NCBI GenBank assembly: GCA_034660535.1
Contig: JAYEJK010000148.1
Span: forward strand, 1 to 40,965
Length of the DNA stretch: 40,965 bases
Direction: 5' to 3'
Origin: Thermodesulfobacteriota bacterium
GTDB lineage: Bacteria; Desulfobacterota; Desulfobulbia; Desulfobulbales; DAOVYS01
Shown one piece after another: positions 18,438 to 40,607 of this stretch (its first letter is position 1; every line of letters starts with the position of its first letter). The position numbers and the translations under genes are program-made. Below the pieces are notes generated by a model that had not been told where the DNA came from, ran no database searches, and saw only the letters and a list, made by a program, of their open reading frames with translations.

Positions 18438-18520
18438 TACCTTAGAAAATATTTTCGTAAAGGTACTTAGGGTCTGGAAAGAGTCCAGGACCTTTAAAAA
18501 TTCCAGTTTATCCGGGTTAG
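18438..18520. mobile_element. Family-2 small mobile element, internally deleted copy A (83 bp)
   Basis: It shares the left end TACCTTAG and the right end TCCAGGACCTTTAAAAATTCCAGTTTATC[C/T]GGGTTAG with copies at 30830..30957 and 40006..40187. It lacks the internal roughly 70 nt. It carries a 14-nt insert, GGGTCTGGAAAGAG, after ...GGTACTTA. Confidence 0.7.
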
Positions 18521-22914: not shown

Positions 22915-24837
22915 TCATTTGTCTTTATTTATCAATATCCGTTTATTTCCCTCTCTGCGGGTGAAATCGATAGAATCCAGATATTCAAGAACCGGGACCC
23001 CTACGGTCCTGCCATAGCCAAGGATCTCTTTGCTGTCCGAAAGGGTGAGACCTCCTTTTTGGATAATTGTTTTTCCAACCCTTGCCTTTATTTCCTCCAT
23101 GGCATCGGGAGACAGGAAACGCCTGTCATTCAGAAGAATCAGCCTTTGCTTGCCATGAAGGTGACTTAGTAATCTCTCGATTCTATTTTTCGGAATTTTC
23201 CCGTGATGGAGTTTCCAGATTGTATGTGCACTAAAAGGCGTAAGGCCCGAATTCCGTGCGTAATCCAGGCAGAATCTGACTAAAGACTCCTGTTCAACAC
23301 ATATTTTTGCCGCACTGTTCTTGCTGCGAAAACCGTTATGATTTTTTTCAAGCCTCCCTTCGTTTGAGAGTTCCGCCAGCATCCTCTGGACAAGGCGCTC
23401 GCCGGCTGAAAAGCGCAACAAATTTTTGATTTCCTGAGAATTAAGTGACAATTTCAGTGGATGTTTTGTTAATTCCTTTTCAATTAATGACGGCAAATCC
23501 TTTTTAAGCTTTTTATAATGATCACGTCTGAGGAACCCTTCCTCGCCAAAAGACAACAGCTCTCTCTTTTTGACCCTTTCCTCTATCTCTATATCGATTG
23601 CCCTCAAGGGGAAACCGGTATCCCTTGCAATATCCCGGGCTGTCACAAAATGGGCCCAGTGTCTTTGAAAAAGATAGTCAAGGAAAATGGCTGTATTGTT
23701 CTGCTTAAGGGCCTGCAGGTAAGGAATAGCCGTAGATGCTTTTGCATGCCTGTACTTTTCTCCAGTGGTCTCCAGAACAGTGCCTCCTCCGATGACTGTG
23801 TGTTTATTCAGCAGGCAGATCACAAAATGGTCTTTTGGAAGGGCAGCCACGGGCTTTATCAGCCGGAATTGCACCAACCCCTTTTCGCCGGGTGTCAGTT
23901 CTTCTTTTTCCATGATGACAACAAGCGCGTTGGTTACTGATGTCCCCAGGAATAGTTTCACCCTCTGCCGGTTTCTGACTCCTTTTTTCACGGTTTCGAG
24001 GATTTTGAGTTCCACATTGAGGAGATAGGGCGTATTCAAGGACTTAGGAGTTGCCAGGGCCATTCCCCTGCTTATTGCTTTAAGCGGGACCTTGTGAAGG
24101 TTTATTCCTACCCTTTGGCCGGTGGAGACCTGGCCGACTTTACGATGATGAACCTCGATAAAACGAGCCCGGGTCTCAATCCCGGATGGCAAAAGAGTAA
24201 GAGAATCATTTTGTTTCAAGGTTCCGGACAGGACTGTCCCGCTGACCACGGTTCCGAATCCTGTAGAACTACTGATACGATCAATCCAGAGCCGAAAGGG
24301 ATTATGAACGTCTTTATTCTCAGTGTCCTGCGAAATGGTGTCCAATTGTTCGAGAATGTTCTCAACGCCTCTCCGGTCTACTGCGGAAAAGGGAATTACC
24401 GGCCTATTCTCCAGAAAAGAGCCTTTTACCAGTTCACTGATTTCAAGCTCGGCAAGTTCCAGTGTTTCGCTGTCCACCAGATCCGCCTTGCTCAAAACAA
24501 TAAAACCTTTTTTCACTTTAAGAAAACGGAGGATTTCCATATGCTCTCCGGTCTGGGGCATGACTCCATCATCCGCGGCCACAACCAGGACGGCTGCATT
24601 AACACTGCTTAACCCTCTTATGGTGTTTTTTAGAAAATCGGTGTGTCCTGGAACATCCAACAAGGCCACCTGAATTCCTGAAGGAAGATCCAGAATGGCG
24701 ACGCCGCTTTCAATGGACAGACCACGCTGTTTTTCAAGTTGAAGACGATCCGTGTCAATGCCGGTCAAAGTCAGAACCAGGGCGGTCTTCCCGTGGTCCG
24801 CATGTCCGGCTGTTCCAATAGTAATGGATCTGTTCAT
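22915..24837 (-). CDS. selB: Selenocysteine-specific translation elongation factor SelB
   Basis: MNRSITIGTAGHADHGKTALVLTLTG... is the GTPase G1 motif and DVPGH is G3. The long C-terminal winged-helix region is present. It lies immediately downstream of tRNA-Sec. The start is set at ATG 24837, because the longer ORF-track start at 24891 overlaps the tRNA. Confidence 0.9.
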   Translation of the reverse strand: MNRSITIGTAGHADHGKTALVLTLTGIDTDRLQLEKQRGLSIESGVAILDLPSGIQVALLDVPGHTDFLKNTIRGLSSVNAAVLVVAADDGVMPQTGEHMEILRFLKVKKGFIVLSKADLVDSETLELAELEISELVKGSFLENRPVIPFSAVDRRGVENILEQLDTISQDTENKDVHNPFRLWIDRISSSTGFGTVVSGTVLSGTLKQNDSLTLLPSGIETRARFIEVHHRKVGQVSTGQRVGINLHKVPLKAISRGMALATPKSLNTPYLLNVELKILETVKKGVRNRQRVKLFLGTSVTNALVVIMEKEELTPGEKGLVQFRLIKPVAALPKDHFVICLLNKHTVIGGGTVLETTGEKYRHAKASTAIPYLQALKQNNTAIFLDYLFQRHWAHFVTARDIARDTGFPLRAIDIEIEERVKKRELLSFGEEGFLRRDHYKKLKKDLPSLIEKELTKHPLKLSLNSQEIKNLLRFSAGERLVQRMLAELSNEGRLEKNHNGFRSKNSAAKICVEQESLVRFCLDYARNSGLTPFSAHTIWKLHHGKIPKNRIERLLSHLHGKQRLILLNDRRFLSPDAMEEIKARVGKTIIQKGGLTLSDSKEILGYGRTVGVPVLEYLDSIDFTRREGNKRILINKDK

Positions 24838-24879
24838 GAGTCCGAGAGTAACTCCGTTTGTTAAAGGTTTGTTTACAAA

Positions 24880-24971
24880 TGGAGGGGGCAAGGGGAATCG
24901 AACCTCCTCCCGGTTTTGCAGACCGGGCCAACGGGTTTGAAGCCCGCGGGGCGCCCAGCACCATTGCCCCC
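24880..24971 (-). tRNA. selC: tRNA-Sec (anticodon UCA)
   Basis: The reverse complement is GGGGGCAATGGTGCTGGGCGCCCCGCGGGCTTCAAACCCGTTGGCCCGGTCTGCAAAACCGGGAGGAGGTTCGATTCCCCTTGCCCCCTCCA. It has an 8-bp acceptor stem (GGGGGCAA/TTGCCCCC), a CUUCAAA anticodon loop, a long variable arm, a GGTTCGATTCC T-arm and a CCA end. It is 92 nt long. Confidence 0.9.
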
Positions 24972-25087
24972 GAAAAACAGGGCCGTCTTAGTCATATCGG
25001 CCTTGCTGCAAAGGATAATACCTGGAAGTATTCCTTGTGAAAGGAGTTAAATATTGAGGATAGGCGGAGGATAGAGCGAAAAAGCCG

Positions 25088-25184
25088 ATTTGTCAAACTG
25101 GAAATTCCGATATAAAATAGGGAAGAGGTTCGGTTTTTCCTATAAAAAGCCGGTTTAATTATCGGAAAAACCAGTTTGACAAAT
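25088..25184. repeat. 97-bp inverted-repeat structure in the selC/selB-yedE divergent intergenic region
   Basis: The arms are ATTTGTCAAACTGGAAATTCCGATA (25088..25112) and TATCGGAAAAACCAGTTTGACAAAT (25160..25184). The outer 14 nt are perfect. Confidence 0.5.
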
Positions 25185-25378
25185 AGAAATTCCCTCTGTA
25201 TTTTGTTGTTCATAGTTTTTTTTAATGATCTAAAAATATCATCACAAGGAATCCATCCATACTGCTTAGGTTTTTTAGGGTCTATCCACTTGATGTATCG
25301 GAAAAATAAAGTGTTCTGTGTTTTTGCCCATAGGGCATTATGTTCAGTAGATATAAAATCGATGAAAGGGGGAAATAA

Positions 25379-26467
25379 ATGGCACAATTGAAAAATTTTT
25401 TTTCGACACGCTGGGGAATTATAAGTGTAGGAGCCTTTATCGGAGTGCTTGCTTCGCTTTTACAGAAATTAGGCAATCCTGGGAATATGGGTATTTGCGT
25501 TGCCTGCTTTGAAAGAGATATTGCAGGGGCAATCGGAATTCATAGGGCGGCTGTGGTCCAGTATATGCGGCCCGAAATCATCGGCTTTGTTCTGGGTTCA
25601 CTAATTGCCGCATATCTTTTCAAGGAATTTCGGTCCCGGACAGGCTCAGCTACTATTGTTCGATTCATGCTGGGAGTTTTTGCCATGATCGGGGCACTGG
25701 TCTTCCTGGGATGCCCGTGGCGAGCTTTACTACGCTTTTCAGCCGGTGATGGAAATGCCGTTTTGGGATTGCTCGGACTGGTCGGCGGCATCTGGATAGG
25801 CACTCTTTTTCTTAAAAGCGGGTATAACCTGGGGCGTGCCGAGAAGACATACACCTCGGTGGGATGGTTATTACCTTTGACCATGATCGGTTTTTTAATG
25901 TTGATGCTCATCTTTCCGCAAATTGATGGAGAGGCCAAAAGCGGAATCCTGTTTTACAGTGTAAAAGGTCCCGGCGTGATGCATGCACCTCTGATTATTT
26001 CCCTGCTGGCCGGCCTTGCTATAGGGTTTGCTGCGCAGAGAAGCCGTTTTTGTACTATGGGTGCTTTTCGGGATTTAATTCTGTTTCGACAGGCCCACCT
26101 TTTCTCAGGGCTTATTGCCCTGGTGGTTTTCGCTTTTATAACAAACCTGATAGTGGAGCAGTTTCATCCAGGCTTTGTCAAACAGCCGGTGGCCCATACC
26201 ATGCATGTCTGGAATTTCGGCGGGATGGTTCTGGCCGGCCTTGCATTTGCCCTGGCAGGAGGATGTCCGGGACGGCAGCTTTTTCTGGCTGGTGAAGGCG
26301 ATGGAGATGCAGCGGTTTTCGTGCTGGGTATGATAGTCGGAGCAGGTTTTGCTCACAATTTCGGCCTGGCGAGTTCTCCAAAAGGTGTTGGCCCTCACGG
26401 TATTGCCGCTGTGATCATCGGGCTTTCGGTCTGTCTGTTTATCGGTTTTACCATGAGAAAAAAATAA
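25379..26467 (+). CDS. yedE: YedE-family putative selenium/sulfur-compound transporter
   Basis: 362 aa, polytopic. LGNPGNMGICVACFERD and the second-half repeat ...RSRFCTMGAFRD... are the paired Cys motifs typical of YedE/YeeE. Confidence 0.85.
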   Translation: MAQLKNFFSTRWGIISVGAFIGVLASLLQKLGNPGNMGICVACFERDIAGAIGIHRAAVVQYMRPEIIGFVLGSLIAAYLFKEFRSRTGSATIVRFMLGVFAMIGALVFLGCPWRALLRFSAGDGNAVLGLLGLVGGIWIGTLFLKSGYNLGRAEKTYTSVGWLLPLTMIGFLMLMLIFPQIDGEAKSGILFYSVKGPGVMHAPLIISLLAGLAIGFAAQRSRFCTMGAFRDLILFRQAHLFSGLIALVVFAFITNLIVEQFHPGFVKQPVAHTMHVWNFGGMVLAGLAFALAGGCPGRQLFLAGEGDGDAAVFVLGMIVGAGFAHNFGLASSPKGVGPHGIAAVIIGLSVCLFIGFTMRKK

Positions 26468-26473
26468 TCAAGG

Positions 26474-26624
26474 GTAATCGTTCACAGGCGCCCCACCTGC
26501 ACGCGATCAGTCCGGCTCACATAGCTTACTATAGTTCGCCGGCCTGCTAGCGTACATCTGGGGCGCCTGTGAACGATTACATACTGAGGAGTCTGCTAAG
26601 TAGGGGACCTCTCTGAACGGTTAC
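26474..26624. repeat. Composite palindromic repeat, family 4, copy 2 (inverted relative to copy 1)
   Basis: GTAATCGTTCACAGGCGCCCCA ... TGGGGCGCCTGTGAACGATTAC (26474..26580), plus an extra half-arm ...CTCTGAACGGTTAC (to 26624). It sits directly after the yedE stop. Confidence 0.8.
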
Positions 26625-26642
26625 AATCAAGGGAGGTAAAAG

Positions 26643-26861
26643 ATGAGTATAATAGTCGATGCAGGAGGGCTTTCCTGTCCACAACCGGTCTTGATGACGC
26701 TAAATAAGATCAAAGAGATACAAAAAGGGGAAATTATAGTAAGGGTGGATACGGACACTTCAAAGGAGAATGTGAGCCGTGCGGCCGAGAGCCGGGGGTG
26801 GGATGTGGCTGATATTCAAAAGGATGAGACAGGATACCGGCTTATTATCAAAAAGGAGTAG
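26643..26861 (+). CDS. TusA/SirA-family sulfur(selenium)-carrier protein
   Basis: 72 aa. ...DAGGLSCPQPVLMTLNKI... carries the CPxP active-site motif. The size and fold pattern match TusA. Confidence 0.85.
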   Translation: MSIIVDAGGLSCPQPVLMTLNKIKEIQKGEIIVRVDTDTSKENVSRAAESRGWDVADIQKDETGYRLIIKKE

Positions 26862-26867
26862 TAAGAT

Positions 26868-27419
26868 TTGTCTTTTTTAGGCTTTTTAAAACAGAAACGA
26901 TCTGAAACCGGGGATGATCAAAACGTAGATCGCGGGATTCTGGTGTTCGAGAACACCAGTGAGGTAATCAGGGCTGAAAGTGTCCTTAAATCAGAAGGAT
27001 GGAAGATAAAAGTTGTGGGCCCTCCGCCTGAAATCCGAAGCGGCTGTGATCTGGTTATTGAGATTCCCCTCATAGAAGAACTGAACATCCTGCGGACTCT
27101 TGAGAAAGCCGGGGCTTCGCCGCTGGAAACAGTGCCTGTCAGCAGTCCATTGCTGCAACCCGTGGATCTCTTCCAGAATAAAGATTTCGGAAAATACCTG
27201 ATGATCCGGGCGGCCAATATGAAATTGACCATTGATAAGGAGACATTGAATATCGTAAATGTCTCCGGTGGCGGCTGCCCGGACGTTCCTTATCTGGCTC
27301 AGGAGATGGTGGGTAAAACAATGGCTGAAGCGCCGGACCCACGGGAAATCGGTCATACCCTGTGTGGCTATGCGCTCCAACTGGCATATGAGGAGATGTC
27401 GCGCCGATGTTCGCTGTAG
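26868..27419 (+). CDS. DUF3343-like (putative Se/S carrier) domain protein with a C-terminal extension
   Basis: The N-terminal part, ...GILVFENTSEVIRAESVLKSEGWKIKVVGPPPEIRSGCDLVIE..., fits the DUF3343 pattern. An additional roughly 90 aa (...VSGGGCPDVPYLAQE...CGYALQ...) belongs to no recognised family. The start is TTG. Confidence 0.6.
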   Translation: MSFLGFLKQKRSETGDDQNVDRGILVFENTSEVIRAESVLKSEGWKIKVVGPPPEIRSGCDLVIEIPLIEELNILRTLEKAGASPLETVPVSSPLLQPVDLFQNKDFGKYLMIRAANMKLTIDKETLNIVNVSGGGCPDVPYLAQEMVGKTMAEAPDPREIGHTLCGYALQLAYEEMSRRCSL

Positions 27420-28270
27420 CGGGGACCGTACCGGTTCAAGATTTCCCCCTGGTGGCAGGAGAAGTTTTTCTGGAAGATGATAATATCCGTATCCGGGAAA
27501 TGCGGGTCCCGGTAAATCGAGGGACTCCGGCTTTGATGGCCGCGGCCGTCAAAGCATGCGAAGCGCTGGATCAAGGCGCTCCCTTTGGATATCTTGTGGG
27601 AGACATCGGACTGGGAGATGGGAGCCGCAGGCTGTATGAATACATGACCGGACATCTTGATAAATTCGATTTCCAATCAAAATACGGAACAGGTCTGCAA
27701 GCAATTACTTTTCATTATCTTCAGCCTGATGTGGACTGGCATAACAGAGTCCTGTCTACCGTGAAGGAAATGGAAAAGGCGCCCATATTAATCGCTGACG
27801 CCGGTTTTATGTATGCTGCCAAGATGAGCGGGAAGGCAGCGGAATATGATCTTTTTACACCGGATGTCGGTGAACTGGCTTTTCTGGCGGATGAAGAGGC
27901 CCCGCATCCATTTTACACAAGGGGTTTTATTTTACACGAAGAAGACCGGATACCTGAGCTGATTGCCCGGACATATAAATATAAAAATGGAGCGCGTTGT
28001 CTCCTGGTAAAAGGGAAACAGGATTATGTGGCAGACCGGCATGGAATTCAGGCGACGATTGACAGTCCAATGGAAGAGGCCATGGAAGCCATGGGCGGCA
28101 CAGGAGATACCTTGACCGGTATTGTAACGGCTCTGATCGGAACAGGCATGGAGGTTATGAAGGCTGCTACTATTGCTGCAAGAGTAAATCGACTGGCCGG
28201 GTATTATGCAAAGCCGACACCCGCCACCCAGGTGATGGAGATTATTAAGCATATACCGACCGCTTTGTAA
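27407..28270 (+). CDS. YjeF_C / ribokinase-superfamily (NAD(P)HX-dehydratase-like) protein
   Basis: ...AMGGTGDTLTGIVTALIG... matches the GGxGDxLxG anion-hole motif of the YjeF C-terminal/carbohydrate kinase fold. It overlaps the previous gene by 13 nt. Its TAA stop (28268..28270) lies inside the inserted family-3 element. Confidence 0.65.
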   Translation: MFAVAGTVPVQDFPLVAGEVFLEDDNIRIREMRVPVNRGTPALMAAAVKACEALDQGAPFGYLVGDIGLGDGSRRLYEYMTGHLDKFDFQSKYGTGLQAITFHYLQPDVDWHNRVLSTVKEMEKAPILIADAGFMYAAKMSGKAAEYDLFTPDVGELAFLADEEAPHPFYTRGFILHEEDRIPELIARTYKYKNGARCLLVKGKQDYVADRHGIQATIDSPMEEAMEAMGGTGDTLTGIVTALIGTGMEVMKAATIAARVNRLAGYYAKPTPATQVMEIIKHIPTAL

Positions 28271-28419
28271 ATATTCGGCTTGATGCCGGAAAATAGCTAA
28301 AATTACCAAACTGTAAATGTTTGGCAACGCTTCACAGGGAGGTGAGCAGGCTGATCAGCTATACTTGGGTATGCTGGGCAGCCTGATCGCCTTCCTGTGG
28401 AGTGTTGCCGAATATTTAC
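28267..28419. mobile_element. MITE-like element, family 3, 153 bp, copy 1
   Basis: It has 13-nt terminal inverted repeats, GTAAATATTCGGC and GCCGAATATTTAC. It is flanked by a perfect 8-bp direct repeat ACCGCTTT (28259..28266 and 28420..28427). The interior is self-complementary. Confidence 0.85.
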
Positions 28420-28679: not shown

Positions 28680-28956
28680 TAAATGTTCACGCACCGCATC
28701 CGGAGTCTCGCAGGCTTGCTTAACCTGCACGCGATTAGGGCAACCAGTATAAGGTGGGCTATAAATATTCGGCAGCACTCCACAGGAAGGCGATCAGGCT
28801 GCCCAGCATACCAAAGTATAGCTGATCAGCCTGCTCACCTCCCTGTGAAGCGCTGCCAAACATTTACAATTTGGTGGTTCTAGCTATTTTCCGGCATCAA
28901 GCCGAATATTTACGGTGGGCTATAGCTGATTGCCCTGATCACGCACAGGTACGATT
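28679..28956. repeat. Degenerate family-4 palindromic repeat, interrupted by family-3 element copy 2
   Basis: GTAAATGTTCACGCACCGC...ACCTGCACGCGATTAGGGCAACCAGTATA is mirrored, after removal of 28761..28921, by TATAGCTGATTGCCCTGATCACGCACAGGTACGATT. The core resembles the family-4 core ACCTGCACGCGATCAG... Confidence 0.45.
28761..28913. mobile_element. MITE-like element, family 3, 153 bp, copy 2 (inverted relative to copy 1)
   Basis: Its reverse complement matches 28267..28419 with about 8 mismatches by eye. It is flanked by a perfect 8-bp direct repeat GGTGGGCT (28753..28760 and 28914..28921). Confidence 0.85.
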
Positions 28957-29389: not shown

Positions 29390-29605
29390 ATGATGGAAGA
29401 CCGATGGCTCTCCGCAGATGATATTGTGGCTTATCTCGGCATCAAGCGGGATACCGTTTATAGATGGATAAGTGAAAGAAATATGCCTGGGCACAAGATC
29501 GGTCGCTTGTGGAAGTTTCGTAAAGAAGAGGTCGACGAGTGGATGCGAAGCGGAGGTGGCCGGAGTGATGCCAACGATAAGCCGGTCGACGAACCGCAAT
29601 CCTGA
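29390..29605 (+). CDS. Excisionase-family / MerR-like helix-turn-helix DNA-binding protein
   Basis: MMEDRWLSADDIVAYLGIKRDTVYRWISERNMPGHKIGRLWKFRKEEVDEWM is the canonical excisionase-type HTH pattern (L...e.A.yLg.s..t.y.w......P..k.G..w.f...e.d.W.). Confidence 0.8.
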   Translation: MMEDRWLSADDIVAYLGIKRDTVYRWISERNMPGHKIGRLWKFRKEEVDEWMRSGGGRSDANDKPVDEPQS

Positions 29606-30265
29606 GGACTTTGAGGATTTTGTTCTGGCAGCAGCCCCCAATAACGAACCCGTCGGAAAACTAATGCGTGAACTTCGGGAACCGTGCCACGGCAGAGCCG
29701 TTCTTATCCTCGATGCGCGCTCTCTGCGTGGGTCTCCCTGGATCATTCACGGCGCTGCCGAGCGCGGATTCACGATTCACGATGCAAGAGCTACCGGAGT
29801 CGAACTGCCTGCGGACACTACCTCCTTCGCCAAGGCGCTCGGATTTTCCCAACGTTGGCGCTCGACAACAACGGTGCAGGATCTGCTCACAAATTGACCG
29901 GAGCGCGAACGGAATCTACGGACATTGCCTGGAAGGATTGCGCTGACTTCATCGGCTCTGAACCCGATTGGGTGTTCTGGCATCACTGGCCGGATCATCG
30001 CCTGCACCATCATGATGAGGCGGGCAAGGGCCTGTCGACGCTGACCAAGGAGATACGGGAACAGCGGACGCTGGATTGATGAAAATGGAGACACGGGTCA
30101 TTGGGTGCCGGCCATCGATCTTTCCCTGAATACGTGGCACGGACAGCATCAGTTTGTACTGGGACGTCGAAAATGGAAGAGCGCGGGCGGATATCCAACG
30201 CTGACGCAGGGAGGATTAAGCGTGCTCGAAGTTGCAGTGCCTTGGATAGAACTATCGAAATGAGG
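29590..30265 (+). pseudogene. Remnant of an unidentified gene spread over three reading frames
   Basis: Protein-like translation continues from frame to frame. The first piece is ...NPEDFEDFVLAAAPNNEPVGKLMRELREPCHGRAVLILDARSL...TTVQDLL. The second is ...KLTGARTESTDIAWKDCADFIGSEPDWVFWHHWPDH...LTKEIREQRT. The third is ...RWIDENGDTGHWVPAIDLSLNTWHGQHQFVLGRRKWKSAGGYPTLTQGGLSVLEVAVPWIELSK*. The region looks more GC-rich than its surroundings by eye. No family was recognised. Confidence 0.4.
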
Positions 30266-30272
30266 CTATTAC

Positions 30273-31521
30273 ATGGCAAAAGACCTTAATAAAAAGCCTT
30301 ATGACGAGGCAACGCTCACCAAACTGGAAATCTTCGAACAATATCTGATCGCGTGGCTACCTGTGTTCATACATACACCCCATACAAGCAAAGCCATGAT
30401 CTGCGATTTTTGTGCCGGTTCTGGATATGATTCTATTGGCATAGATGGAAGTCCTATTCGCATCGTCAAGCGAATAGACAATTATCGCGACCAGATTTTC
30501 CAGAATGATATTCATATCGATATTCTTCTAAATGATGTAAAAATCAAGAAATACCGTGAACTGGAGAACGCTGTCGCCGAATCGTTTCAGGAGGAATCCT
30601 GGCATGGCAAGGTTACTCTTTCTTGTCACAACGAAGATTTCCAGCAGCTCTTCCGGCAACAATACGAGCGCCTAAAACAACAGCCAAACCTCCTTTTTAT
30701 CGACCAGTCCGGCGTCAGGCAGGTCACGAATGAAATCTTCCAGATGCTGATCGGCCTGAATAAAACGGACTTTCTGTTTTTCATTTCGTCATCAGCGATA
30801 AAGCGGTTTGCCGGAACAGCCGAGTTTAGTACCTTAGTGGTAATTTTCTTGTTTTTTCTGGCAGGAAATCAAAAAGGTGAAATATTTTTAAATAGTTACA
30901 CGCTGCTGTTAAGGTACTTATCCAGGACCTTTAAAAATTCCAGTTTATCTGGGTTAGGAGTCTTTTTCCTGACATTGATCCCGATAAGATTTCGGCTGCC
31001 AAGCATGAAGATATTCATCGAATCATGCTGGACTACTACACGCTGAAAATCCCAGAGACAATCTCACAAGGTTGTATCCCTTTTCGCTTAAAAAAGGGTC
31101 AAACATTTACGGTTTAATTTTTGGTTCAAAGCATCCCCTCGGTGTTGAGAAGTTTCTCGATCTGGTATGGGTCCAAAACGCCATCAACGGGGAAGCTAAT
31201 TTCGACATCAATGACGACGTTGAAAAAGGGCAACCGACCCTATTCGATTTGCTACCCGACTTCGAACGTCCTAAAACCAAACGAGAATTGTTTGAAGACT
31301 ATCTGGAAGAGTTCATTCACAATCACGGCCAGGTCACAAACCGTGAAGTATACGACTTTACATTGATTCATGGCCACCCAAAGTCTCATGCGGGCGAATG
31401 CATAATACGCTTGAAAAGTGAAGGTAAAGTAGAGTATAGCGGGCGAATCGGGTTCAGCTATAAATCCTGCGGCAAGAAGAATTCCGTACTAAAGACAATA
31501 AAATGGATAACTAATGGCTAA
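30273..31521 (+). pseudogene. tcmP: Three-Cys-motif partner protein TcmP, disrupted by a family-2 element insertion and one frameshift
   Basis: It lies immediately upstream of, and overlaps, a DUF5131/Gp37-Gp68 gene, which is the usual TcmP pairing. The frame is intact from 30273 to 30829. Removing 30830..30957 rejoins ...GTAEF|RSLFPDIDPDKISAAKHEDIHRIMLDYYTLKIPETISQ... in frame. A further 1-nt shift near 31068..31075 leads into ...YPFSLKKGSNIYGLIFGSKHPLGVEKFLD... (the frame of ORF 31072..31521). Confidence 0.7.
30830..30957. mobile_element. Family-2 small mobile element, copy B (124 bp plus a 4-bp TTAG duplication)
   Basis: TTAG at 30826..30829 is repeated at 30954..30957. The sequence is collinear with 40006..40187, apart from two 27-nt inserts in the latter. 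There are no long terminal inverted repeats. Confidence 0.8.
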
Positions 31522-32887
31522 TTCCAAAATAGAATGGACAGATTCAACATGGAATCCAGTGACGGGTTGCAGAAAAACAAGTGCAGGATGCCTGAACTGC
31601 TACGCGGAACGTATGTCCAAGCGGTTGAAGGCAATGGGGCAGGCAAACTATGCTAATGGCTTTGAGGTAACGATGCACCCGCACGTCATTGAGCATCCGC
31701 TGAAATGGAAAAAGGCACAGGTCATATTTGTGAACTCTATGAGCGACTTGTTTCACGAGGATGTTCCGCTGGAGTTTATCCGGCAAATCTTTGATGTGAT
31801 GACCAGGGCAGACTGGCACACATTTCAGATTTTGACCAAACGGTCCAAGCGTCTGGAAGAATTGGCTCCGCTGCTGGAATGGCCCAAAAACGTTTGGATG
31901 GGTGTGACGGTCGAGAATGCCAGTTGTGCCTACCGTATCGAGCACCTTTGCACTGTCCCTGCAGCAGTGCGGTTTTTATCAATGGAGCCGCTGTTGTCAG
32001 CGGTGGATGACATGAACCTTGACGGCATCGACTGGGTTATCGTTGGTGGCGAATCAGGCCCGGGGGCACGCCTAATACAAAAACAATGGGTATATGGCAT
32101 CCGCAAGCAATGTCGAGAAGCAAAGGTACCTTTCTTTTTCAAGCAGTGGGGAGGTATTAATAAGAAAAAGGCAGGCCGGGAACTTGACAGCCGGATTTAT
32201 GACGAGATGCCGGAACAACCTTGGAAATATTGTCATCCGCCGATGAAAAAGACTGAATGGCTGGCCAGAGAGGTGGCCATGGTCGTAAATGCAGGCAAGG
32301 CCTGGGACTGTGAAACGGTTGACTTTTCAAATCCCAACCGTCCGCCAACGTGTTTGGAGGTCGATTTTCCGATCCTGCCTATCAACCAGATTGCGGCTAT
32401 CGAAGGCAATGCGGGCAAGCCCATTTACCAGATGTCCAAGTGGTGGGCGCGGAGATGCAGCAGCGTATTCCGTGCCATGCTCATAACCGCTGCCATGAAA
32501 GCCCCGGAGGACCCGTCCGAGGCAGCCAAGCAGGTATGGGATGCCTATTACGGCAACCATCAGAAAAAGGGCGCGTTCAAGCATCTCAAGGTTGCCGACA
32601 TCTTCATGGGCGGCAGCACCACAGTCGTGGAAGGCTCGCGTCTCGGCATGCAGATGTACGGCAACGATCTGAACCCCGTGGCCTGGTTCGTGGTCAAGAA
32701 CGAGATGGCCAAAGTGGAGAATGCCGAGGTCAAGGCGCAGATCATGCCTTTCTACGCCTGCGATTGCCCGTGCGGCCACAAGGGCAAATGGACAAAGGTC
32801 GGTACCGGGGAGGTGATGGGTGATGATTTCGAGCCTACCTCACTTTGCCCCGAGGAGCATAAAGAGTATAGCTATGAAGGCCCCTAA
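31514..32887 (+). CDS. DUF5131 (phage Gp37/Gp68 family, three-Cys motif) protein, continuing in frame into an N-terminal DUF1156-type methyltransferase fragment
   Basis: Residues 1 to about 235 read ...IEWTDSTWNPVTGCRKTSAGCLNCYAERM... and ...VPFFFKQWGG...GRELDSRIYDEMP, which is the Gp37/Gp68 pattern. From about residue 244 (nt 32243) the sequence reads ...CLEVDFPILPINQIAAIEGNAGKPIYQMSKWWARR... and ...VADIFMGGSTTVVEGSRLGMQMYGNDLNPVAWFV. That is the DUF1156 N-terminal motif plus SAM-binding motif I. No stop codon separates the two parts. Confidence 0.7.
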   Translation: MANSKIEWTDSTWNPVTGCRKTSAGCLNCYAERMSKRLKAMGQANYANGFEVTMHPHVIEHPLKWKKAQVIFVNSMSDLFHEDVPLEFIRQIFDVMTRADWHTFQILTKRSKRLEELAPLLEWPKNVWMGVTVENASCAYRIEHLCTVPAAVRFLSMEPLLSAVDDMNLDGIDWVIVGGESGPGARLIQKQWVYGIRKQCREAKVPFFFKQWGGINKKKAGRELDSRIYDEMPEQPWKYCHPPMKKTEWLAREVAMVVNAGKAWDCETVDFSNPNRPPTCLEVDFPILPINQIAAIEGNAGKPIYQMSKWWARRCSSVFRAMLITAAMKAPEDPSEAAKQVWDAYYGNHQKKGAFKHLKVADIFMGGSTTVVEGSRLGMQMYGNDLNPVAWFVVKNEMAKVENAEVKAQIMPFYACDCPCGHKGKWTKVGTGEVMGDDFEPTSLCPEEHKEYSYEGP

Positions 32888-33345
32888 TCATCTATGTCTT
32901 TTGGGCCAAGCACGGTCCCTGCCAGGTCACGGGCTGCGGCCATCGCACGCCGATCATGACCAGCCCCGCGTCATGGTGGTAAAAACCATTTCCGTGAAGT
33001 ATTGGGTTCACCAATGCCCTCACTGCGGTGGCAAATACGACCTGGAAGAACGAGAAGCACGCATGGCCCCTGGTGGTAATCTCGCTTTCACGTTTCCACC
33101 ACAGTGAGGACGCGCCGTGGGTAGCGGTTTTGGAGTCGTTGTTTGACGCGGGATTCTACCTTGCGGCCACCTACCTGATTCGCAGCGACGAGACCAAAGG
33201 CACGGGTGAATTCGGCTCCGAGAAAATCGAATACGACATCATCCACGTCTGCCGTAAGCGCATGGAGGACCCCGAGCCCATAAGCTGGAACACAAGATGC
33301 GCCGCCAGTGTCCGCTGCCTGCAGGAGATGCTGGAACATCACCGA
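32243..33345 (+). pseudogene. DUF1156-type (anti-phage-associated) DNA methyltransferase, heavily degraded
   Basis: Collinear fragments lie in different frames. The N-terminal part is in the 31514 frame. It is followed by PLIIYVFWAKHGPCQVTGCGHRTPIMTSP (shifted at about 32880), then VVKTISVKYWVHQCPHCGGKYDLEE (shifted again). The C-terminal piece is ...FHHSEDAPWVAVLESLFDAGFYLAATYLIRSDE...DIIHVCRKR... (33028 frame). The total of about 1.1 kb compares with about 2.7-3 kb expected for this family. Confidence 0.6.
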
Positions 33346-33372
33346 CGGACCAATTCAGAGCGAGGAAATAAA

Positions 33373-36048
33373 ATGAGCAAGACAGACTCAATCGTGAATG
33401 CCCAAGAATTACCCTGCGGCGCTCGTTTTTTTCGTTGCGCCCTTCAAGTGAATCCATTTGATTATATTGTACGGCATAGCAAAGAGACGGTGTTCAACAA
33501 CGAATCGGATTATAATGCGGCGATAGTGAAGGCGTGTAAGAGAATCGGTATTGAGGTGATCGCTATTACCGATCACCAGCGTTGCAGCACCGGACAGTCA
33601 CTGGCCGAAGCGGCCCGCGCTGAAGGAATTATTGTTTTTATCGGAGCAGAATTGGAAACCAAAGAGGGTGTTCATATGTTGCTTCTTTTTGAACCGGATG
33701 CCTCTTGGGAGCGCTGCAACGGTATATTGGGCGATTGCGGAATTCATGACCAGGCGAATCCGCCTTCGGCAATCAAATATGATGTACATGAGTTACTGCG
33801 TGAATCTGTCCGATGGAACTGTATCTGTGTTGCCGCCCATGTAGCGAGTGAAAAAGGCTTGTTGCAGGTACTGGATAATCAGGCCCGGGCGGCGGCATGG
33901 AAATCCGAGTATCTTCCGGCCTGCTCTCTGCCCGGCCCGGCGAAAGATGCACCACCGAACCTGCGGCCAATTTTGCTCAACAAAAACTCTGACTATCTTC
34001 GTGATCGACCTGTAGCTGTAATCAACGCTCAGGACGTGTCAAGTCCGGATGATTTTGAAAAAGCTGGCTCGTCTTGTTGGATAAAGATGTCAGATGTTAC
34101 GATTGAGGGATTACGACAGGCGTTTCTTGATCCTGCTTCCAGGATACGTATGGCCAGTGATCCACCTCCGGAGGAGCACACCGAGTTCATTGCCATATCA
34201 TGGCAAGGTGGTTTTCTCGATTGTGCGGCAATTCATTTAAATGAAAACCTGAATGTCCTAATCGGCGGACGAGGAACAGGGAAATCAACTGTCGTTGAAA
34301 GTATCCGTTATGTCCTTGGCATGCAACCACTCGGTGAGGAAGCCCTTAAGGCTCATAGTGGCATTGTTCGCCAGGTACTTCGTAGCGGCACAAAGATTTC
34401 AATGCGGGTCCGCTCTTACCACCCGGATAAGCGTTATTACCTGATCGAACGAACTATTCCGAATCCACCTGTTGTCAAAGACGAGACCGGCAATGTTCTC
34501 AATCTGACTCCCACGGATGTCGTCCCCCAGACCGAAATATACGGACAACATGAGATCTCGGAACTTACTAAAAGCCGCGAAAAACTCACACACCTTCTCG
34601 ACCGTTTCGTAGAATGCGATACCGATATCTTAAAACGAAAAAGTGGCGTTCGCCGGCAGTTGGAGCGTTCACGCTCGCGTTTGCTTGAAACCCACAGAGA
34701 GCTTCTGCAAATTGAGGATCGTCTCGCCACTCTGCCGGCTCTTGAGGAGACATTGCGTCGGTTCCAGGATGCCGGGCTTGAGGAGAAACTTAAGGAGCAG
34801 AGCCTTCTTGTTCGGGAAGAAAGGGTGCTTAAGACTTCAGGGGAACGGCTAAGCCCCTTCAAGGAACTGCTGAATCAATTGGAGAGTGATCTTCCAATTG
34901 ATCGTGCTTTTATCTCTCCAAAAGCGCTGGAGAATCTTCCCGGAAAGGAAATTTTGGGTGATACGAACGACATCCTGGAACAGTTCACAAAGGACATGAA
35001 TAGTATCGTCGCTGAAATAAAGAAGGCTATCGGAAACGCAGAGACTGGTTTGGGTGAAATACGGAGCCGCTGGGGGGAACGAAAAAAGGCGGTTATGGCG
35101 GCGTATGAAGCCATCTTGCTTGAACTGCAGAAATCGAAGATTGATGGTGAGGAATTCATCCGCTTAAGGCGACAAATGGAGGAACTCCGTCCGCTAAAAG
35201 AAAGGCAAACCGCGTTACAGCGCAATTTGAAAGAGTATGAAACTGAACGGCGGAATCTTCTCTCTGAGTGGGAAGACGTAAAGGCCGAAGAATTCCGGCA
35301 TCTGGAACGTGCGGCAAAAAAAGTAAACAGGAAACTTGAAGGACGTGTTTTGGTCGATGTTGCTGCAGGCGGAAATAGGGAACCGCTGATTCAGCTTCTG
35401 CGTGATCAAATTGGAGGACGCTTGTCCGAGACGATTGAGTCCTTGACGCAAAGCACAGACTTCTCTCTTCCGATATTCACTGAAGCATGTAGAGAAGGTC
35501 GGGAGGCTTTGTCCCTGCAGTTCAACATCCCTACCAGCCAATCAGAACGTATTGCTCAGGCAAAGCCCAATATCATAATGCAAATCGAGGAATTGGAGCT
35601 GCCGCCTACCACAACCATTAAACTAAATGTCGCTGCTGACGATCAACCACCAGTGTGGCAGACGCTTGAAGACCTTTCCACAGGACAAAAAGCAACTGCG
35701 GTTCTCCTTCTCCTGCTGCTTGAGTCGAGCGCACCTCTGGTTGTGGACCAGCCGGAAGATGATCTCGATAATCGCTTTATTTCCGACGGAATAGTGCCAA
35801 AAATGCGAGAAGAAAAACGCCGACGTCAGTTCATCTTCGCCACCCATAACGCCAATATCCCGGTGCTGGGAGACGCCGAGTTGATAGTCGGGCTAACAGC
35901 GTTCGGTGAGGCGGGACAAGGCAAAGCGAAGCTTTCTCAGGAGCATATGGGGTCTATCGACACACGCCTCGTCCGTGAACTTGTTGAAGAAGTCCTGGAA
36001 GGTGGAAAGGACGCTTTTGAGATGCGACGCTTAAAGTACGGATTTTGA
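33373..36048 (+). CDS. PHP-domain phosphoesterase fused to an SMC/Rad50/RecN-like ABC ATPase with a long coiled-coil insert
   Basis: The ATG at 33373 is preceded by GAGGAAAT. The PHP-like N-terminus reads ...FRCALQVNPFDY...IEVIAITDHQ...VFIGAELETKEGVHMLLLF...VAAHV... Walker A is LIGGRGTGKST, followed by about 350 aa rich in heptad-like E/K/L/R. The signature-like motif is LSTGQK, Walker B is PLVVDQPEDDLD and the H-loop is FIFATHN. The ORF-track start at 33028 adds methyltransferase-remnant codons. Confidence 0.8.
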   Translation: MSKTDSIVNAQELPCGARFFRCALQVNPFDYIVRHSKETVFNNESDYNAAIVKACKRIGIEVIAITDHQRCSTGQSLAEAARAEGIIVFIGAELETKEGVHMLLLFEPDASWERCNGILGDCGIHDQANPPSAIKYDVHELLRESVRWNCICVAAHVASEKGLLQVLDNQARAAAWKSEYLPACSLPGPAKDAPPNLRPILLNKNSDYLRDRPVAVINAQDVSSPDDFEKAGSSCWIKMSDVTIEGLRQAFLDPASRIRMASDPPPEEHTEFIAISWQGGFLDCAAIHLNENLNVLIGGRGTGKSTVVESIRYVLGMQPLGEEALKAHSGIVRQVLRSGTKISMRVRSYHPDKRYYLIERTIPNPPVVKDETGNVLNLTPTDVVPQTEIYGQHEISELTKSREKLTHLLDRFVECDTDILKRKSGVRRQLERSRSRLLETHRELLQIEDRLATLPALEETLRRFQDAGLEEKLKEQSLLVREERVLKTSGERLSPFKELLNQLESDLPIDRAFISPKALENLPGKEILGDTNDILEQFTKDMNSIVAEIKKAIGNAETGLGEIRSRWGERKKAVMAAYEAILLELQKSKIDGEEFIRLRRQMEELRPLKERQTALQRNLKEYETERRNLLSEWEDVKAEEFRHLERAAKKVNRKLEGRVLVDVAAGGNREPLIQLLRDQIGGRLSETIESLTQSTDFSLPIFTEACREGREALSLQFNIPTSQSERIAQAKPNIIMQIEELELPPTTTIKLNVAADDQPPVWQTLEDLSTGQKATAVLLLLLLESSAPLVVDQPEDDLDNRFISDGIVPKMREEKRRRQFIFATHNANIPVLGDAELIVGLTAFGEAGQGKAKLSQEHMGSIDTRLVRELVEEVLEGGKDAFEMRRLKYGF

Positions 36049-36059: not shown

Positions 36060-37277
36060 ATGACAAAGACAGAGCTGTTAGAGCTAATCAAGAACGGTGA
36101 AAACTCTGGAATTGAGTTCAAGCGCGACACTATAGACAACCGGGCCATGGCCAAAGAGCTAGTTGCATTTGCTAACTTACGAGGCGGCCGTGTGCTTTTG
36201 GGAGTGGATGATGATGGCAGCGTGGTTGGGATAACCAGGGATCGGTTAGAAGAATGGATTATGACTACCTGTCGAGATAAAATTCGCCCTGAGTTAATCC
36301 CGTATTATGAAATAATCCGCGATGTGGAGCCAGGGAAAGATGTAGCTATTGTTCAAGTTGACCGCGGATGGGCGGTCCATCATGTTTGGCACAATAACCA
36401 TCGGACTTACTATATTCGTGTTGGAACACAGAGCCGCGAGGCCAGTGCCGAGGAACTTGAGCGGTTGTTTCAGCAGCGTGGGGCCTTCCGGCTGGAGGTA
36501 CGCGGGGTATCGGGCTCATCCATGGACAATTTTGACTATCGTCGCTTAAACGATTATTTTCAGCGTATCCGCTCTCAAGAAACGCCAGGCACGGATGATA
36601 CGAATGCCTGGCAAAATCTGCTTGTAAACACCGAATTCCTGGTTGATGAAGACGACACGACTCCGGCGACAGTTGCGGGCTTACTTCTGTTTTGCGCTAA
36701 TCCGAATCGTTTCTTGCCCCAAGCCGGAATAGATGCCGTTGCTTATCCTGGAAAGGAAAAGGATTATGCCGCTAAAGAACGGTTAGCTATTCGCGGTCCT
36801 ATGACGGCCCTGTTTGGGAGCGAAGGACTCGTTGAAAATGGACTTGTGGAACAAGCGGTGGAATTCACAAGGCGAAATACCGAAGTGTCGGCCGGTTTTG
36901 CTGATGGTGCGAGGCGCGAGGAACGATGGTTGTATCCGGAAGAAGCGATTAGGGAAGCCATTGTCAACGCCCTTGTTCATCGGGACTACCTTTTGTCGGG
37001 AACGACTGTGGAATTGTCTATATATGAAGATCGATTAGAGGTGGTTTCTCCCGGACGTCTTCCTAACGGCATCACTCCACAGCGTATGATAACGGGGTGC
37101 CGTTCAGCCCGGAACCAATTGCTCAAAGATGTCATGAGAGACTACGGTTATCTTGAGCACATGGGCATGGGTGTGCCTCGCAAAATCGTTAAAGAAATGC
37201 AAAAACATAACGGCACTTCGCCCGATTTGGTCGAGGATGAGGAGCGCTTTTTGGTCAGACTGTGGAAGAAGAAATGA
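36060..37277 (+). CDS. AlbA_2 (Schlafen-type) DNA-binding domain protein with a C-terminal HATPase_c_4-like domain (RecG-like putative regulator)
   Basis: ...LIKNGENSGIEFKRD...ELVAFANLRGGRVLLGVDDDGSVVGI... is the AlbA_2 signature. The C-terminal part reads ...EAIREAIVNALVHRDY...IEIYEDRLEVVSPGRLPNG... It lies 11 nt after the ATPase gene, with a GAGGGG SD. Confidence 0.8.
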   Translation: MTKTELLELIKNGENSGIEFKRDTIDNRAMAKELVAFANLRGGRVLLGVDDDGSVVGITRDRLEEWIMTTCRDKIRPELIPYYEIIRDVEPGKDVAIVQVDRGWAVHHVWHNNHRTYYIRVGTQSREASAEELERLFQQRGAFRLEVRGVSGSSMDNFDYRRLNDYFQRIRSQETPGTDDTNAWQNLLVNTEFLVDEDDTTPATVAGLLLFCANPNRFLPQAGIDAVAYPGKEKDYAAKERLAIRGPMTALFGSEGLVENGLVEQAVEFTRRNTEVSAGFADGARREERWLYPEEAIREAIVNALVHRDYLLSGTTVELSIYEDRLEVVSPGRLPNGITPQRMITGCRSARNQLLKDVMRDYGYLEHMGMGVPRKIVKEMQKHNGTSPDLVEDEERFLVRLWKKK

Positions 37278-37870
37278 AAGAAATAGACGTCAGGGGTTTG
37301 GCCTGCCCGGCTCCGGTATTGCGGACAAAAAACGCCATAGAAGAGAACAACTTAAATAGTATAAAAGTCCTGGTGGATAATGAAGCGTCCATGCAAAACG
37401 TCGACCGTTTTCTTAAATCCCGGGGTTTTAAAGTCTCATTACAGGTGAAGGATGGGGATTTTCATGTTACAGGGAGGCATGAAGGTGGAACTGAGACTGA
37501 AGTCGCGGCGGCTGAAAAACCGGATGATGAAAAGAAAAAAACCATGGTTATGGTTGTAACGGACTGCATGGGTCACGGGGATGATGAGCTTGGCTCAAAG
37601 CTTATGGTGAGTTTTTTAAAAACCATAAAGGAAATGGGTGATGAACTGTGGCGGCTGGTTTTTGTGAATAACGGCGTTAAACTTACTATCGAAAATTCCG
37701 AGGTGCTGCCGATTTTGAAAGAATATGAAAAAGACGGTCTGCATATCCTGGTCTGCGGGACATGCCTGACTCATTTTGATTTGCTGGACAAAAAACAGGT
37801 GGGCGAAACCACAAATATGCTCGATATTGTTACAGCCATGCAACTGGCCGATAAGGTGATTAGTATTTGA
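37274..37870 (+). CDS. yedF: Selenium metabolism protein YedF (TusA/SirA-like N-domain plus DsrE-like C-domain)
   Basis: MKEIDVRGLACPAPVLRTKNAI... carries the CPxP motif. The C-terminal half, ...MVMVVTDCMGHGDDELG...LVCGTCLTHFDL..., is the DsrE-like fold. The ATG overlaps the upstream stop as ATGA (37274..37277). Confidence 0.8.
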   Translation: MKEIDVRGLACPAPVLRTKNAIEENNLNSIKVLVDNEASMQNVDRFLKSRGFKVSLQVKDGDFHVTGRHEGGTETEVAAAEKPDDEKKKTMVMVVTDCMGHGDDELGSKLMVSFLKTIKEMGDELWRLVFVNNGVKLTIENSEVLPILKEYEKDGLHILVCGTCLTHFDLLDKKQVGETTNMLDIVTAMQLADKVISI

Positions 37871-37917
37871 CAAAGGAAATGAATATGGTTTACCTATTTG
37901 TTCTGAGGAAATAAATC

Positions 37918-38973: not shown

Positions 38974-39155
38974 TTGTATAGAAATTTCCATTTTCCTTAA
39001 CCTTGAACAGTGAACGTCCAACATCAAACGTCCTAACATCGAATGGTGAATGGAAAAGATAAAGAAACAGACTCAAGCAGGGCATATCGGTGCTTGCGGA
39101 TGAAATATTCCGCAATATGATGTTGGAATTTTTTTCCGGTCCTTCAAACATGATT

Positions 39156-39338: not shown

Positions 39339-39859
39339 CGATTTTTTCCCTCATCAATGAGTTGTGGGCTTTCGCCTGAATTATTATACAGCACCCAGGC
39401 ATCGACTAAATTTTTATAGATATTATGAAAGTTATTCCATCCTTTGTCAAACCGGCGATGGATAACCGGCTCATCCACATTGTGACCGCCCTGGGCAACA
39501 CGAATCCGCACCCGTTCCACAGCAATTTCCACGTCCGGCAGACTGAGAAAAATTAGTTTGGTCCGATATCCGATATCCTGCCACTGCCGGATATATCGGG
39601 CGTAAAGGCGGCCGCTCAGCGTGGTTTCAAAGGCAAAACTTTCTCTGCGTCCAACATATCCCCTGATTTCTTCGATCATCAGACGACCAGCCCTGAATGC
39701 TGCTTGTTCAGGGGTGAATGGCGACAGCCCGGCCGCGATAAGATCAGCATTGACAAAGGAGGGACAGGCCGCTTCCCTGACCAGAAATTCTCTGGCGAAT
39801 GTGGTCTTGCCCGCACCATTTGGCCCGGCAATGATAACAATTTTTTGCTCTTCACTCAT
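39335..39859 (-). CDS. Zeta-toxin-family P-loop kinase-like protein
   Basis: MSEEQKIVIIAGPNGAGKTTFAREF... is the Walker A motif, and ...FAFETTLSG... follows. The size of about 174 aa and overall pattern fit the zeta toxin/AAA_33-like kinase fold. Confidence 0.7.
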   Translation of the reverse strand: MSEEQKIVIIAGPNGAGKTTFAREFLVREAACPSFVNADLIAAGLSPFTPEQAAFRAGRLMIEEIRGYVGRRESFAFETTLSGRLYARYIRQWQDIGYRTKLIFLSLPDVEIAVERVRIRVAQGGHNVDEPVIHRRFDKGWNNFHNIYKNLVDAWVLYNNSGESPQLIDEGKNR

Positions 39860-40607
39860 AATTGACCCTGCACATCATTCTCTGTTATCCGTCGCTTACC
39901 GGTGACGCATTCGTGGATCAGGGACTTGCGGTATTGTTCGAGGGTTGAGATTTGTTTTTCGATGTTATCATGTAGCGTTGATAACTCTACACATTTTTTG
40001 TTTAGTGCCTTAGTGGTAATTTTCTTGTTTTTTCTACCCCTCAAGGGGGTACTGAAATGAGTGGCAGGAAATCAAAAAGGTGAAATATTTTTAAATAGTT
40101 ACACGCAGCTGTTAAGGTACTTATACCCCTCAGGGGGGTACTGAAAATAGTCCAGGACCTTTAAAAATTCCAGTTTATCTGGGTTAGATAGCTGACGATA
40201 AATTTTTGTTCGGTGTCAGGAGGCAGTGGTATCGTGCCGTTTTTTACATGTCTGTTGGCAATTGCCCATCGTGTTATTCCCGTTGCTTCTCTGTGCAATT
40301 GGCTGGCAATAGATGCATCTCGCAAAACCCAAAAAAGATATGAACCTCTAAGCCTTTGATTATTACTGCGAATTATTGATAGATGGTACCCACATAGCAA
40401 TTTGGGCTGAGTCTCAACTACTAAGGCGGGGACAGCAATGTCATATGGGTCTTCAGAGTCTTTTGTAATAAGAACATCTTTTTTAAAGAACATCTTCGCC
40501 ATGAAATCCTCTATCCCGTACCCCACCGTCAATACGTTTTCAGTATCCCCAAGATACTCAGGGTCTATTTCAAATACGACCGTAAACTCCTTGGCAAACT
40601 CTGTCAA
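39856..40607 (-). pseudogene. hsdS: Type I restriction-modification specificity subunit HsdS remnant (single TRD plus C-terminal conserved helix), disrupted by a family-2 element
   Basis: ...GYHLSIIRSNNQRLRGSYLFWVLRDASIASQLHREATGITRWAIANRHVKNGTIPLPPDTEQKFIVSYL, then the insertion, then NKKCVELSTLHDNIEKQISTLEQYRKSLIHECVTGKRRI. Removing 40006..40187 rejoins both parts in frame. No Met or N-terminal TRD is present, and upstream lies a transposase fragment. Confidence 0.7.
40006..40187. mobile_element. Family-2 small mobile element, copy C (182 bp, carrying two nested 27-nt inserts)
   Basis: TTAG at 40002..40005 is repeated at 40184..40187. It is collinear with copy B, apart from the inserts ACCCCTCAAGGGGGTACTGAAATGAGT (40036..40062) and ACCCCTCAGGGGGGTACTGAAAATAGT (40125..40151). 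Confidence 0.8.

Follow-up and report, generated by a model that had tools for sequence, protein, structure and literature searches.

A small TTAG-bounded insertion element without terminal inverted repeats in a Thermodesulfobacteriota contig

What kind of element lies between two TTAG tetranucleotides in two different genes, carries no gene of its own, and lets both interrupted sequences rejoin when it is removed in silico together with one TTAG? The question is raised by contig JAYEJK010000148.1 of assembly GCA_034660535.1, a Thermodesulfobacteriota contig from a metagenome-assembled genome (MAG), which was analysed whole (40,965 nt) and is called the window below. It carries three copies of the element, named A, B and C, of which B lies in tcmP and C in hsdS. 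An earlier sequence-only reading saw here the inactivation of two defence genes by an element with a 4-bp target-site duplication, and suggested an IS5-type transposase. Comparison with related loci leads to a different picture. The element is a non-autonomous, gene-less and precisely bounded insertion element without terminal inverted repeats (TIRs); a single-strand mechanism of the IS200/IS605 kind is tentatively favoured for its movement, and its two host genes are decayed in other ways as well.

Empty sites, copies and anatomy of the element

The evidence for insertion comes from orthologous loci that lack the element. Four orthologous tcmP loci (L013-L016; records outside the window are cited by such numbers) read ...GCCGAGT-TTAG-GAGTCTTTTT..., and one orthologous hsdS (L017) reads ...TTTTTTGT-TTAG-ATAGCTG... 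These empty sites are the window flanks joined via a single TTAG, and copies B and C are therefore genuine insertions; insertion at TTAG is directly demonstrated. The sequence-only reading is thereby confirmed in that TTAG bounds the element on both sides in tcmP and hsdS; in the comparison with orthologues that it had suggested, these lack the element and have their flanks joined through one TTAG. Filled and empty sites fit insertion without duplication and a 4-bp duplication alike, because the element itself also ends in TTAG.

The same junctions are seen at the protein level. Excision of copy B with one TTAG gives the tcmP product ...AGTAEF-RSLFPDIDPDK..., and excision of copy C with one TTAG gives the hsdS product ...FIVSYL-NKKCVELSTL... 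The N-terminal 238 aa of the restored TcmP match TIGR04474 (101.7 bits) in a single continuous stretch, and the Pfam Methylase_S match of the restored HsdS fragment spans the junction. Intact homologues of TcmP (84-88% identity, 369-373 aa) and of HsdS (70-81%) are gap-free and colinear over the respective junctions. The earlier claim that excision restores both frames exactly is thus right for the two junction peptides, which rejoin as had been quoted, but not for the genes, since tcmP is shifted again at ~31053 and hsdS is merely a 3' fragment.

How widespread is the element? The conserved right-end core served as query in a single scan each of representative genomes and metagenomes, and further relatives found by protein look-ups were added to the copy set. 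Fifteen further independent copies were found outside the window, in three MAGs (two labelled Thermodesulfobacteriota, one Pseudomonadota) and several short metagenome contigs, for a total of 18 independent copies of about 83-186 nt. The carriers include JAYEGR01 (MAG241), JAYEFH01 (MAG278), DAOVYS01 (CSMAG_1789) and the ENA assemblies ERZ25748485, ERZ25748493, ERZ23498918 and ERZ23498674. Within the window, a shared 28-mer is found three times and a shared 20-mer twice, compared with none in 100 shuffles. BLAST of the element against plasmid and phage collections gave no match, scans of viral contigs with the right-end and left-end patterns found nothing (the hairpin module described below alone matched), and exact-protein look-ups with two window proteins returned no record. 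For SelB of the window, identity is 94% to its relatives but only 61% to the next best match, and the lineage is therefore isolated. The element is an undescribed family restricted to a few uncultured Thermodesulfobacteriota-like genomes. Two details of single copies can be added: in the close relatives L018 (26-62) and L019 (42-78), a further A-type copy lies in the opposite orientation to A-C, ~0.5 kb past the position matching the window's right end, and a run of N masks the middle of the MAG241 copy (L001, ~7405-7500) in the genome collection, which makes its internal module unreadable.

The copies are built from a few modules. The ends read TACCTTAG... on the left and ...CTGGGTTAG on the right, and the order of parts is a left module (TACCTTAG-TGGTAATTTTCTTGTTTTTTMT), a hairpin module H that may be missing, a variable middle ending in TTAAGGTACTTAT, in some copies a second H, and the right end CCAGGACCTTTAAAAATTCCAGTTTATCTGGGTTAG, with 0, 1 or 2 H per element. 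Copy C equals copy B plus two 27-nt inserts, each a short GC hairpin. One variant class consists of left module, H and right end (L005, L008, L011); others are short A-type variants (A, L003, L004b, L001, L018) or have an unrelated or decayed left part (L009, L010, L012), and the right end is much more conserved than the left end. No TIRs are found between the ends in any register (duplication length 2, 3 or 4 bp); by eye, there is a weak subterminal TGG(T)AATTTT match. A stem formed by AGTACCTTA and TAAGGTACT links the first bases of the element to the end of the middle module. In two copies both sides of this stem carry a compensatory change, from TACC/GGTA to TGCC/GGCA, and copy C has the wobble TGCC/GGTA. 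The lack of long TIRs, the subterminal pairing GTACCTTA...TAAGGTAC and the G-U-compatible change in copy C, all described earlier, were accordingly found again, with weak formal covariation (see below). The coordinates are collected in Table 1.

Table 1. Features of the element copies and of their host genes in the window
Feature	Position	Strand	Remarks
Left TTAG of copy B	30826..30829	+	Target or transposon-adjacent motif; sole TTAG at empty site
Copy B	30830..30957	+	124-nt body plus terminal TTAG; no hairpin modules; sense orientation in tcmP pseudogene
Left-end stem, 5' arm AGTACCTTA	30828..30836	+	Takes in final AG of flanking TTAG
Left-end stem, 3' arm TAAGGTACT	30910..30918	+	
Conserved right-end module TCCAGGACCTTTAAAAATTCCAGTTTATCTGGGTTAG	30921..30957	+	
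Right-end hairpin TCCAG-TTTAT-CTGGG	30939-30953	+	Adjoins terminal TTAG
Left TTAG of copy C	40002..40005	+	
Copy C	40006..40187	+	178-nt body plus terminal TTAG; antisense in hsdS fragment
Hairpin module H1 ACCCCTCAAGGGGGTACTGAAATGAGT	40036..40062	+	In copy C
Hairpin module H2 ACCCCTCAGGGGGGTACTGAAAATAGT	40125..40151	+	In copy C
Copy A	18438..18520	+	Short intergenic variant; left flank TTAA, right end TTAG
tcmP pseudogene	30273..31521	+	Broken by copy B and a 1-nt deletion at ~31053
DUF499 and PglZ-like patchwork remnants	29600..30063	+	Complete in orthologous islands; mark deletion joints
hsdS 3' fragment	39856..40478	-	Part of target recognition domain and C-terminal conserved helix

The TTAG motif and the mode of movement

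Several regularities of the copies bear on how the element moves. The left flank is TTAG, usually as TTTAG, in 12 of the 14 copies with a recognisable left end, the exceptions being TTAA and ATAG; CTAR (CTAA or CTAG) never occurs among these 14, an outcome with a probability of ~6e-5 under an even YTAR target. On the right, 11 of 18 copies have TTAG; the other seven, among them L003, L004b, L006, L010 and L011, have TTAA (twice), TTAC, TTTG, TTGG, TCAG or TTCG, which is unlike the left tetranucleotide wherever the left is readable. In most copies a G follows the element. In L002, two different subfamily members stand head to tail with one TTAG in common. Copies A, B and C all lie on the plus strand; among the sources as a whole, GC skew places the element on the G-rich strand in 11/13 (p=0.02). 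The element is also co-oriented with the downstream gene in 13/16 (p=0.02), and the apparent strand bias is confounded with gene orientation. Nine intergenic copies, and a tenth seen only as the ORF P0324 that reads through it, have a co-oriented start codon 1-70 nt downstream; the start-proximal copies include A, L003, L004b, L006, L008, L009, L010 and L012, with the right end of A 4-24 nt upstream of an FmdE-like ORF. A target such as TTAG-GAGG would be remade by the element's own TTAG end; with the ribosome-binding site thus preserved, the insertion would be tolerable.

The reading that we favour, with a confidence somewhat short of even, is that the element is non-autonomous and moves by a single-strand route like that of IS200/IS605, flanking motif and terminal motif being the same TTAG; a fair share of the probability falls to none of the readings considered here. 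An HUH/Y1 transposase acting in trans would nick one strand 3' of the flanking TTAG (the transposon-adjacent motif) and cut again 3' of the element's terminal TTAG (the transposon-encoded motif), and the single-stranded circle so released would be pasted 3' of another TTAG. Because both motifs are the same tetranucleotide, the product would mimic a 4-bp target-site duplication and excision would be scarless; and because the terminal motif would double as a target, tandem copies like those of L002 are expected. The single-strand reading is consistent with the lack of TIRs, the strict TTAG, the tandem, the strand bias, the small size and the conserved right end; a second repeat family on the same contig has, by contrast, clear TIRs. 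This mechanism had been mentioned earlier only as an alternative, and is now the favoured one.

The closest known likeness is to the gene-less PATE derivatives of IS605-type elements. As described by Meers et al. (PMC10055086), who also describe ISGst elements, the adjacent and encoded motifs of IS605-type elements are near-identical and read by DNA guides, insertion occurs without duplication, excision is scarless, and PATEs keep an RNA scaffold at their right end. Like PATEs, the present element is small, ORF-less and TIR-less, has subterminal stem-loops, a fixed tetra- or pentanucleotide beside the insertion and a similar motif at its own 3' terminus, and shows empty sites that may be scarless, an apparent strand bias and a more conserved right end. 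It differs in that its adjacent and terminal motifs are identical (TTAG/TTAG), mimicking a target-site duplication.

Other features set it apart from PATEs or weigh more generally against a single-strand mechanism. No partner insertion sequence or Y1 transposase was identified: there is no TnpA, TnpB or other transposase in the 41-kb window, and none is seen among the best 25 of 82 Pfam families (49 ORFs from L001-L012), all 25 being housekeeping, the collection scans having sought copies only. Membership of the family is unproven, because no such partner was found. The left stem starts at base 1 and pairs with the flanking AG, thus taking in two flank bases, unlike in IS608, and the left and right end hairpins are dissimilar. 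No Rfam family matches the element, transposon-associated RNAs included, and its folding energy is not better than that of shuffles (z = -0.5 to -1.3 on both strands, as DNA and as RNA). In the covariation test, 92.5% of cells are paired, one pair is double-changed and 56/500 shuffles score equal or higher. No convincing guide tetranucleotide can be assigned at the element ends; by analogy, the AAAT 5' of TCCAG...CTGGG would be a possible right-end guide. Finally, the last AG of the right end varies in 5/30 cases against 5/165 in the preceding 11 positions (p=0.009), in copies ascertained via the right-end core only. Such variability fits a crossover within TT^AG better than an element-borne TTAG, although survivorship of immobilised copies could also produce it.

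Two further searches gave little. An element-derived peptide matched no transposase C-terminus among 1.84 billion representative proteins, its matches being one spurious repeat protein and a 92-aa ORF through another copy upstream of a gene start; the literature on TTAG with IS605, TnpA or TnpB yielded nothing useful.

Could the TTAG be a true 4-bp duplication after all? A miniature inverted-repeat transposable element (MITE) moved by a DDE transposase of the IS5 or IS701 type, with a staggered cut at TTAG, would account for one TTAG at empty sites and TTAG on both sides of filled ones, and tandem copies with one common TTAG are compatible with it. TTAG is moreover one of the four YTAR sequences, and YTAR is documented as the target of IS5 and IS711; known IS5/IS701 MITEs share the size class and the seeming duplication of a site within YTAR. 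Considering, however, that the present element has no TIRs at an assumed duplication of 2, 3 or 4 bp, that CTAA and CTAG are absent from the 14 left flanks, that the right tetranucleotide departs from TTAG in 7/18 copies despite a perfectly conserved adjacent right end, and that double-strand cut-and-paste does not predict an orientation bias, we regard this account as unlikely. The fit to an IS5-type YTAR target seen earlier is not supported (no TIRs, TTAG in 12/14 left flanks and no CTAR, a non-TTAG right end in 7/18). The 4-bp duplication at TTAG proposed with it keeps the TTAG on both sides and the single one at empty sites, but the 7/18 right tetranucleotides other than TTAG, unequal to the left one wherever that can be read, are not what it predicts.

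Also improbable, on our estimate, is site-specific recombination of a circular form, with a crossover at TT^AG made by an IS607-like serine recombinase or by an enzyme of the IS110 kind. The element proper would then be AG-TACC...CTGGG-TT, the circle junction would read ...GGGTT-AGTACC..., and the "duplication" would be the shared crossover core. The boundaries suit this account: the left AG is kept in 13/14 copies and is paired in the left-end stem, the right TT is kept in 17/18, and the right AG has become AA, AA, AC, TG, GG or CG in six copies, the excess variation (p=0.009) noted above. An element that is small and TIR-less also suits it, and the IS607 family has neither TIRs nor a true duplication, with a short core on both sides that would explain the variable right AG. 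On the other hand, no recombinase, and specifically no serine recombinase, was found here, the strand bias is neither predicted nor explained, and the statistic comes from 5-6 copies and could reflect the decay of immobile ones. Flanks are unconserved beyond ~TTTAG-G, against the guide-RNA targeting of the IS110 type; the IS110 family as such was rejected for want of an extended target of ~10 nt or more around a short core. Non-autonomous IS607 derivatives this small are not known to be established.

The hairpin module H (ACCCCTCARGGGGGTACTGAAA) raises a question of its own. In a scan of viral contigs, a 27-34 nt H module turned up in two other settings at 91-97% identity. On one viral contig, H-like hairpins lie in two group II introns (L023, 1776-1809(-) and 6576-6601(-)), and because the second intron has a homologous hairpin with compensatory changes, H is a native intron substructure. 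In the other setting, a second viral contig (L024, 5170-5200(-)), a type II hammerhead ribozyme (RF02276; 53 bits) has a stem-loop expanded by 69 nt, and the H-like segment lies within this expansion. H is the only part that the element has in common with intron and ribozyme, and within the element it always stands at the tip of a predicted hairpin. The missing inverted-repeat ends and this borrowed module are the only two unusual features of the element, the insertion event itself being ordinary.

Might the element then travel as RNA? We consider it very unlikely that a structured RNA is the form in which it is propagated or selected, with H as an exchangeable block and a reverse transcriptase in trans, as a bacterial retro-element resembling short interspersed nuclear elements (SINEs). 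In a milder version, a TnpB-type nuclease would use the conserved right end in trans as a guide-RNA scaffold. An explicit RNA-mediated route, in which a structured RNA would be copied back into DNA by target-site priming with a trans reverse transcriptase such as that of a group II intron, seems to us more doubtful still. It could draw on the likeness of the module to the group II intron hairpin and the hammerhead loop, on the position of the module at hairpin tips, and on a constant 3' end with variable or truncated 5' parts (L009-L012), but deletion and decay can explain the 5' differences. Neither within the copies nor near them is there an intron core, a ribozyme or a reverse transcriptase, the element strand has no EBS-like complement of the target, and a fixed 4-nt motif with precise boundaries is untypical of such a route.

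That the family is not mobile at all, being a recurring regulatory leader or promoter motif or an assembly artefact, is scarcely credible: the right end is often followed, 1-70 nt on, by a co-oriented start codon and is kept better than the rest in decayed copies such as L012, but two copies lie inside ORFs with precise orthologous empty sites, which refutes the idea for B and C, and the scans predicted no sigma-70-type promoter or terminator pointing outward from the right end, Rfam gave no match, and the neighbours are unrelated genes.

Other identities were tried and rejected. The Rfam search, made with the whole window at gathering thresholds and at E<=10 with copies B and C, returned tRNA-Cys, tRNA-Sec and noise only. 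A group II intron or ORF-less derivative was set aside on the lack of an intron match for B or C at E<=10, with H alone in common, and GU-AG or group II intron boundaries were rejected by inspection. An integron attC site would find a GTTAGRx at the right junction, but there is no CTAAC-type inverse core in the element, and CRISPR-DR matches in Rfam (E 3-10) are not significant. Pneumococcal BOX and enterobacterial REP/BIME and REPIN sequences resemble the element in being modular, with a hairpin unit present 0-2 times, and mostly intergenic near gene starts; unlike the present element, BOX and REPIN have rarely been shown interrupting ORFs with precise empty sites, and the GC-rich palindromes of REPs have a GTAG-type foot and a RAYT link, neither of which is seen here.

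The decayed host genes and the question of defence

Did the element switch off defence genes? Both host genes are also broken otherwise. After excision of copy B, tcmP still stops at ~31117; a C-run is short by one base at ~31053, and the last ~135 codons are in another frame, as ORF 31072-31521. At orthologous loci, tcmP stands within an island of DUF499, PglZ-like, TcmP, DUF5131, methylase and helicase genes. In the window, 97 nt of the DUF499 gene and 379 nt of the PglZ-like gene remain, and the methylase has a 1.4-kb internal deletion and is fused to the next ORF. Aligned with L014, window positions 29600-33343 hold the island in fragments with at least 4 internal deletion joints, and ORF 33028-36048 is a methylase remnant fused to a TrlF/Ppl-like ATPase. 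The TcmP/DUF5131 pair is listed in PADLOC as a candidate defence pair only (PDC-M30).

The hsdS gene has fared no better. Just its 3' ~620 nt are left, fused upstream with the opening ~40 codons of a 174-aa gene unrelated to it (40488-40607), and no hsdM or hsdR accompanies the fragment in the window. In close relatives (95-99.7% DNA identity), the 174-aa gene is intact and lies directly beside selD. Compared with L018 and L019, the window at 38975-40487 has 354 nt of the 174-aa gene swapped for 1.5 kb in which a small ORF and a zeta-toxin-like AAA gene accompany the hsdS fragment. Past 40839, window and relatives diverge again.

Both host genes lie in such wreckage that their inactivation is not creditable to the element, and the earlier statement that it inactivated two defence genes is not supported. 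The suggestion of selection for the loss of defence fares similarly: all 15 extra copies are intergenic, 0/15 hit a recognisable defence gene, and the genes around them, by the Pfam search described above, are mostly housekeeping. The simplest and most economical reading is that dead genes tolerate insertions, with tcmP and hsdS already functionless remnants, or becoming so soon after, when they would have received copies B and C. There is thus no evidence of immunity switched off by the element, its hosts being decaying islands, and both genes should be annotated as pseudogenes on this contig.

Other repeats in the window and what the element adds

The window is rich in other repeats. A second, unrelated family (26468-26628, 3562-3743 and 19730-19799) has clear terminal inverted repeats (GTAATCGTTCACAGGCGCC...); its 161-nt copy lies between the sulfur-transport and tusA genes and is missing in L020-L022, where these genes are 12 nt apart. 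Two 188-nt copies (1003-1190 and 20310-20497) are 100% complementary, each an imperfect palindrome with 90-nt arms, and are suggested to be a high-copy, assembly-breaking repeat because the relatives' contigs stop near 20.5 kb. Inverted repeats of 152 nt (28267-28418 and 28762-28913; 95%) surround a 343-nt interval with two small ORFs of 76 and 66 aa that have no Pfam match; pieces of their arms recur in L001, L005 and L006, and the relatives' contigs stop at ~28270. The annotation of the element also explains why contigs of relatives break at repeats. A perfect tandem duplication of 291 nt (1616-2197; 99% identity) lies in ORF 1585-2232, which has no Pfam match.

Around the decayed defence island runs a selenium/sulfur-relay cluster (22915-28270 and 37262-38973) with selB, tRNA-Sec (24880-24971), the sulfur-transport protein, TusA, a Se/S carrier, YedF and SelD. 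Where relatives have 36 nt upstream of the sulfur-transport gene (L020, 2762-2797), the window has 152 nt (25205-25356), which adjoin a 42-nt inverted repeat (25071-25201).

What does the element mean beyond this contig? It calls for caution in classification, as an IS200/IS605-type element whose flanking motif equals its terminal motif looks like one with a 4-bp duplication and is easily misfiled as a DDE element. The sharing of H is the only real lead to other elements, and may point to small structured modules that are exchanged between mobile elements. The element itself adds an unclassified family of tiny, TIR-less insertion elements from an uncultured, sulfate-reducer-like lineage.

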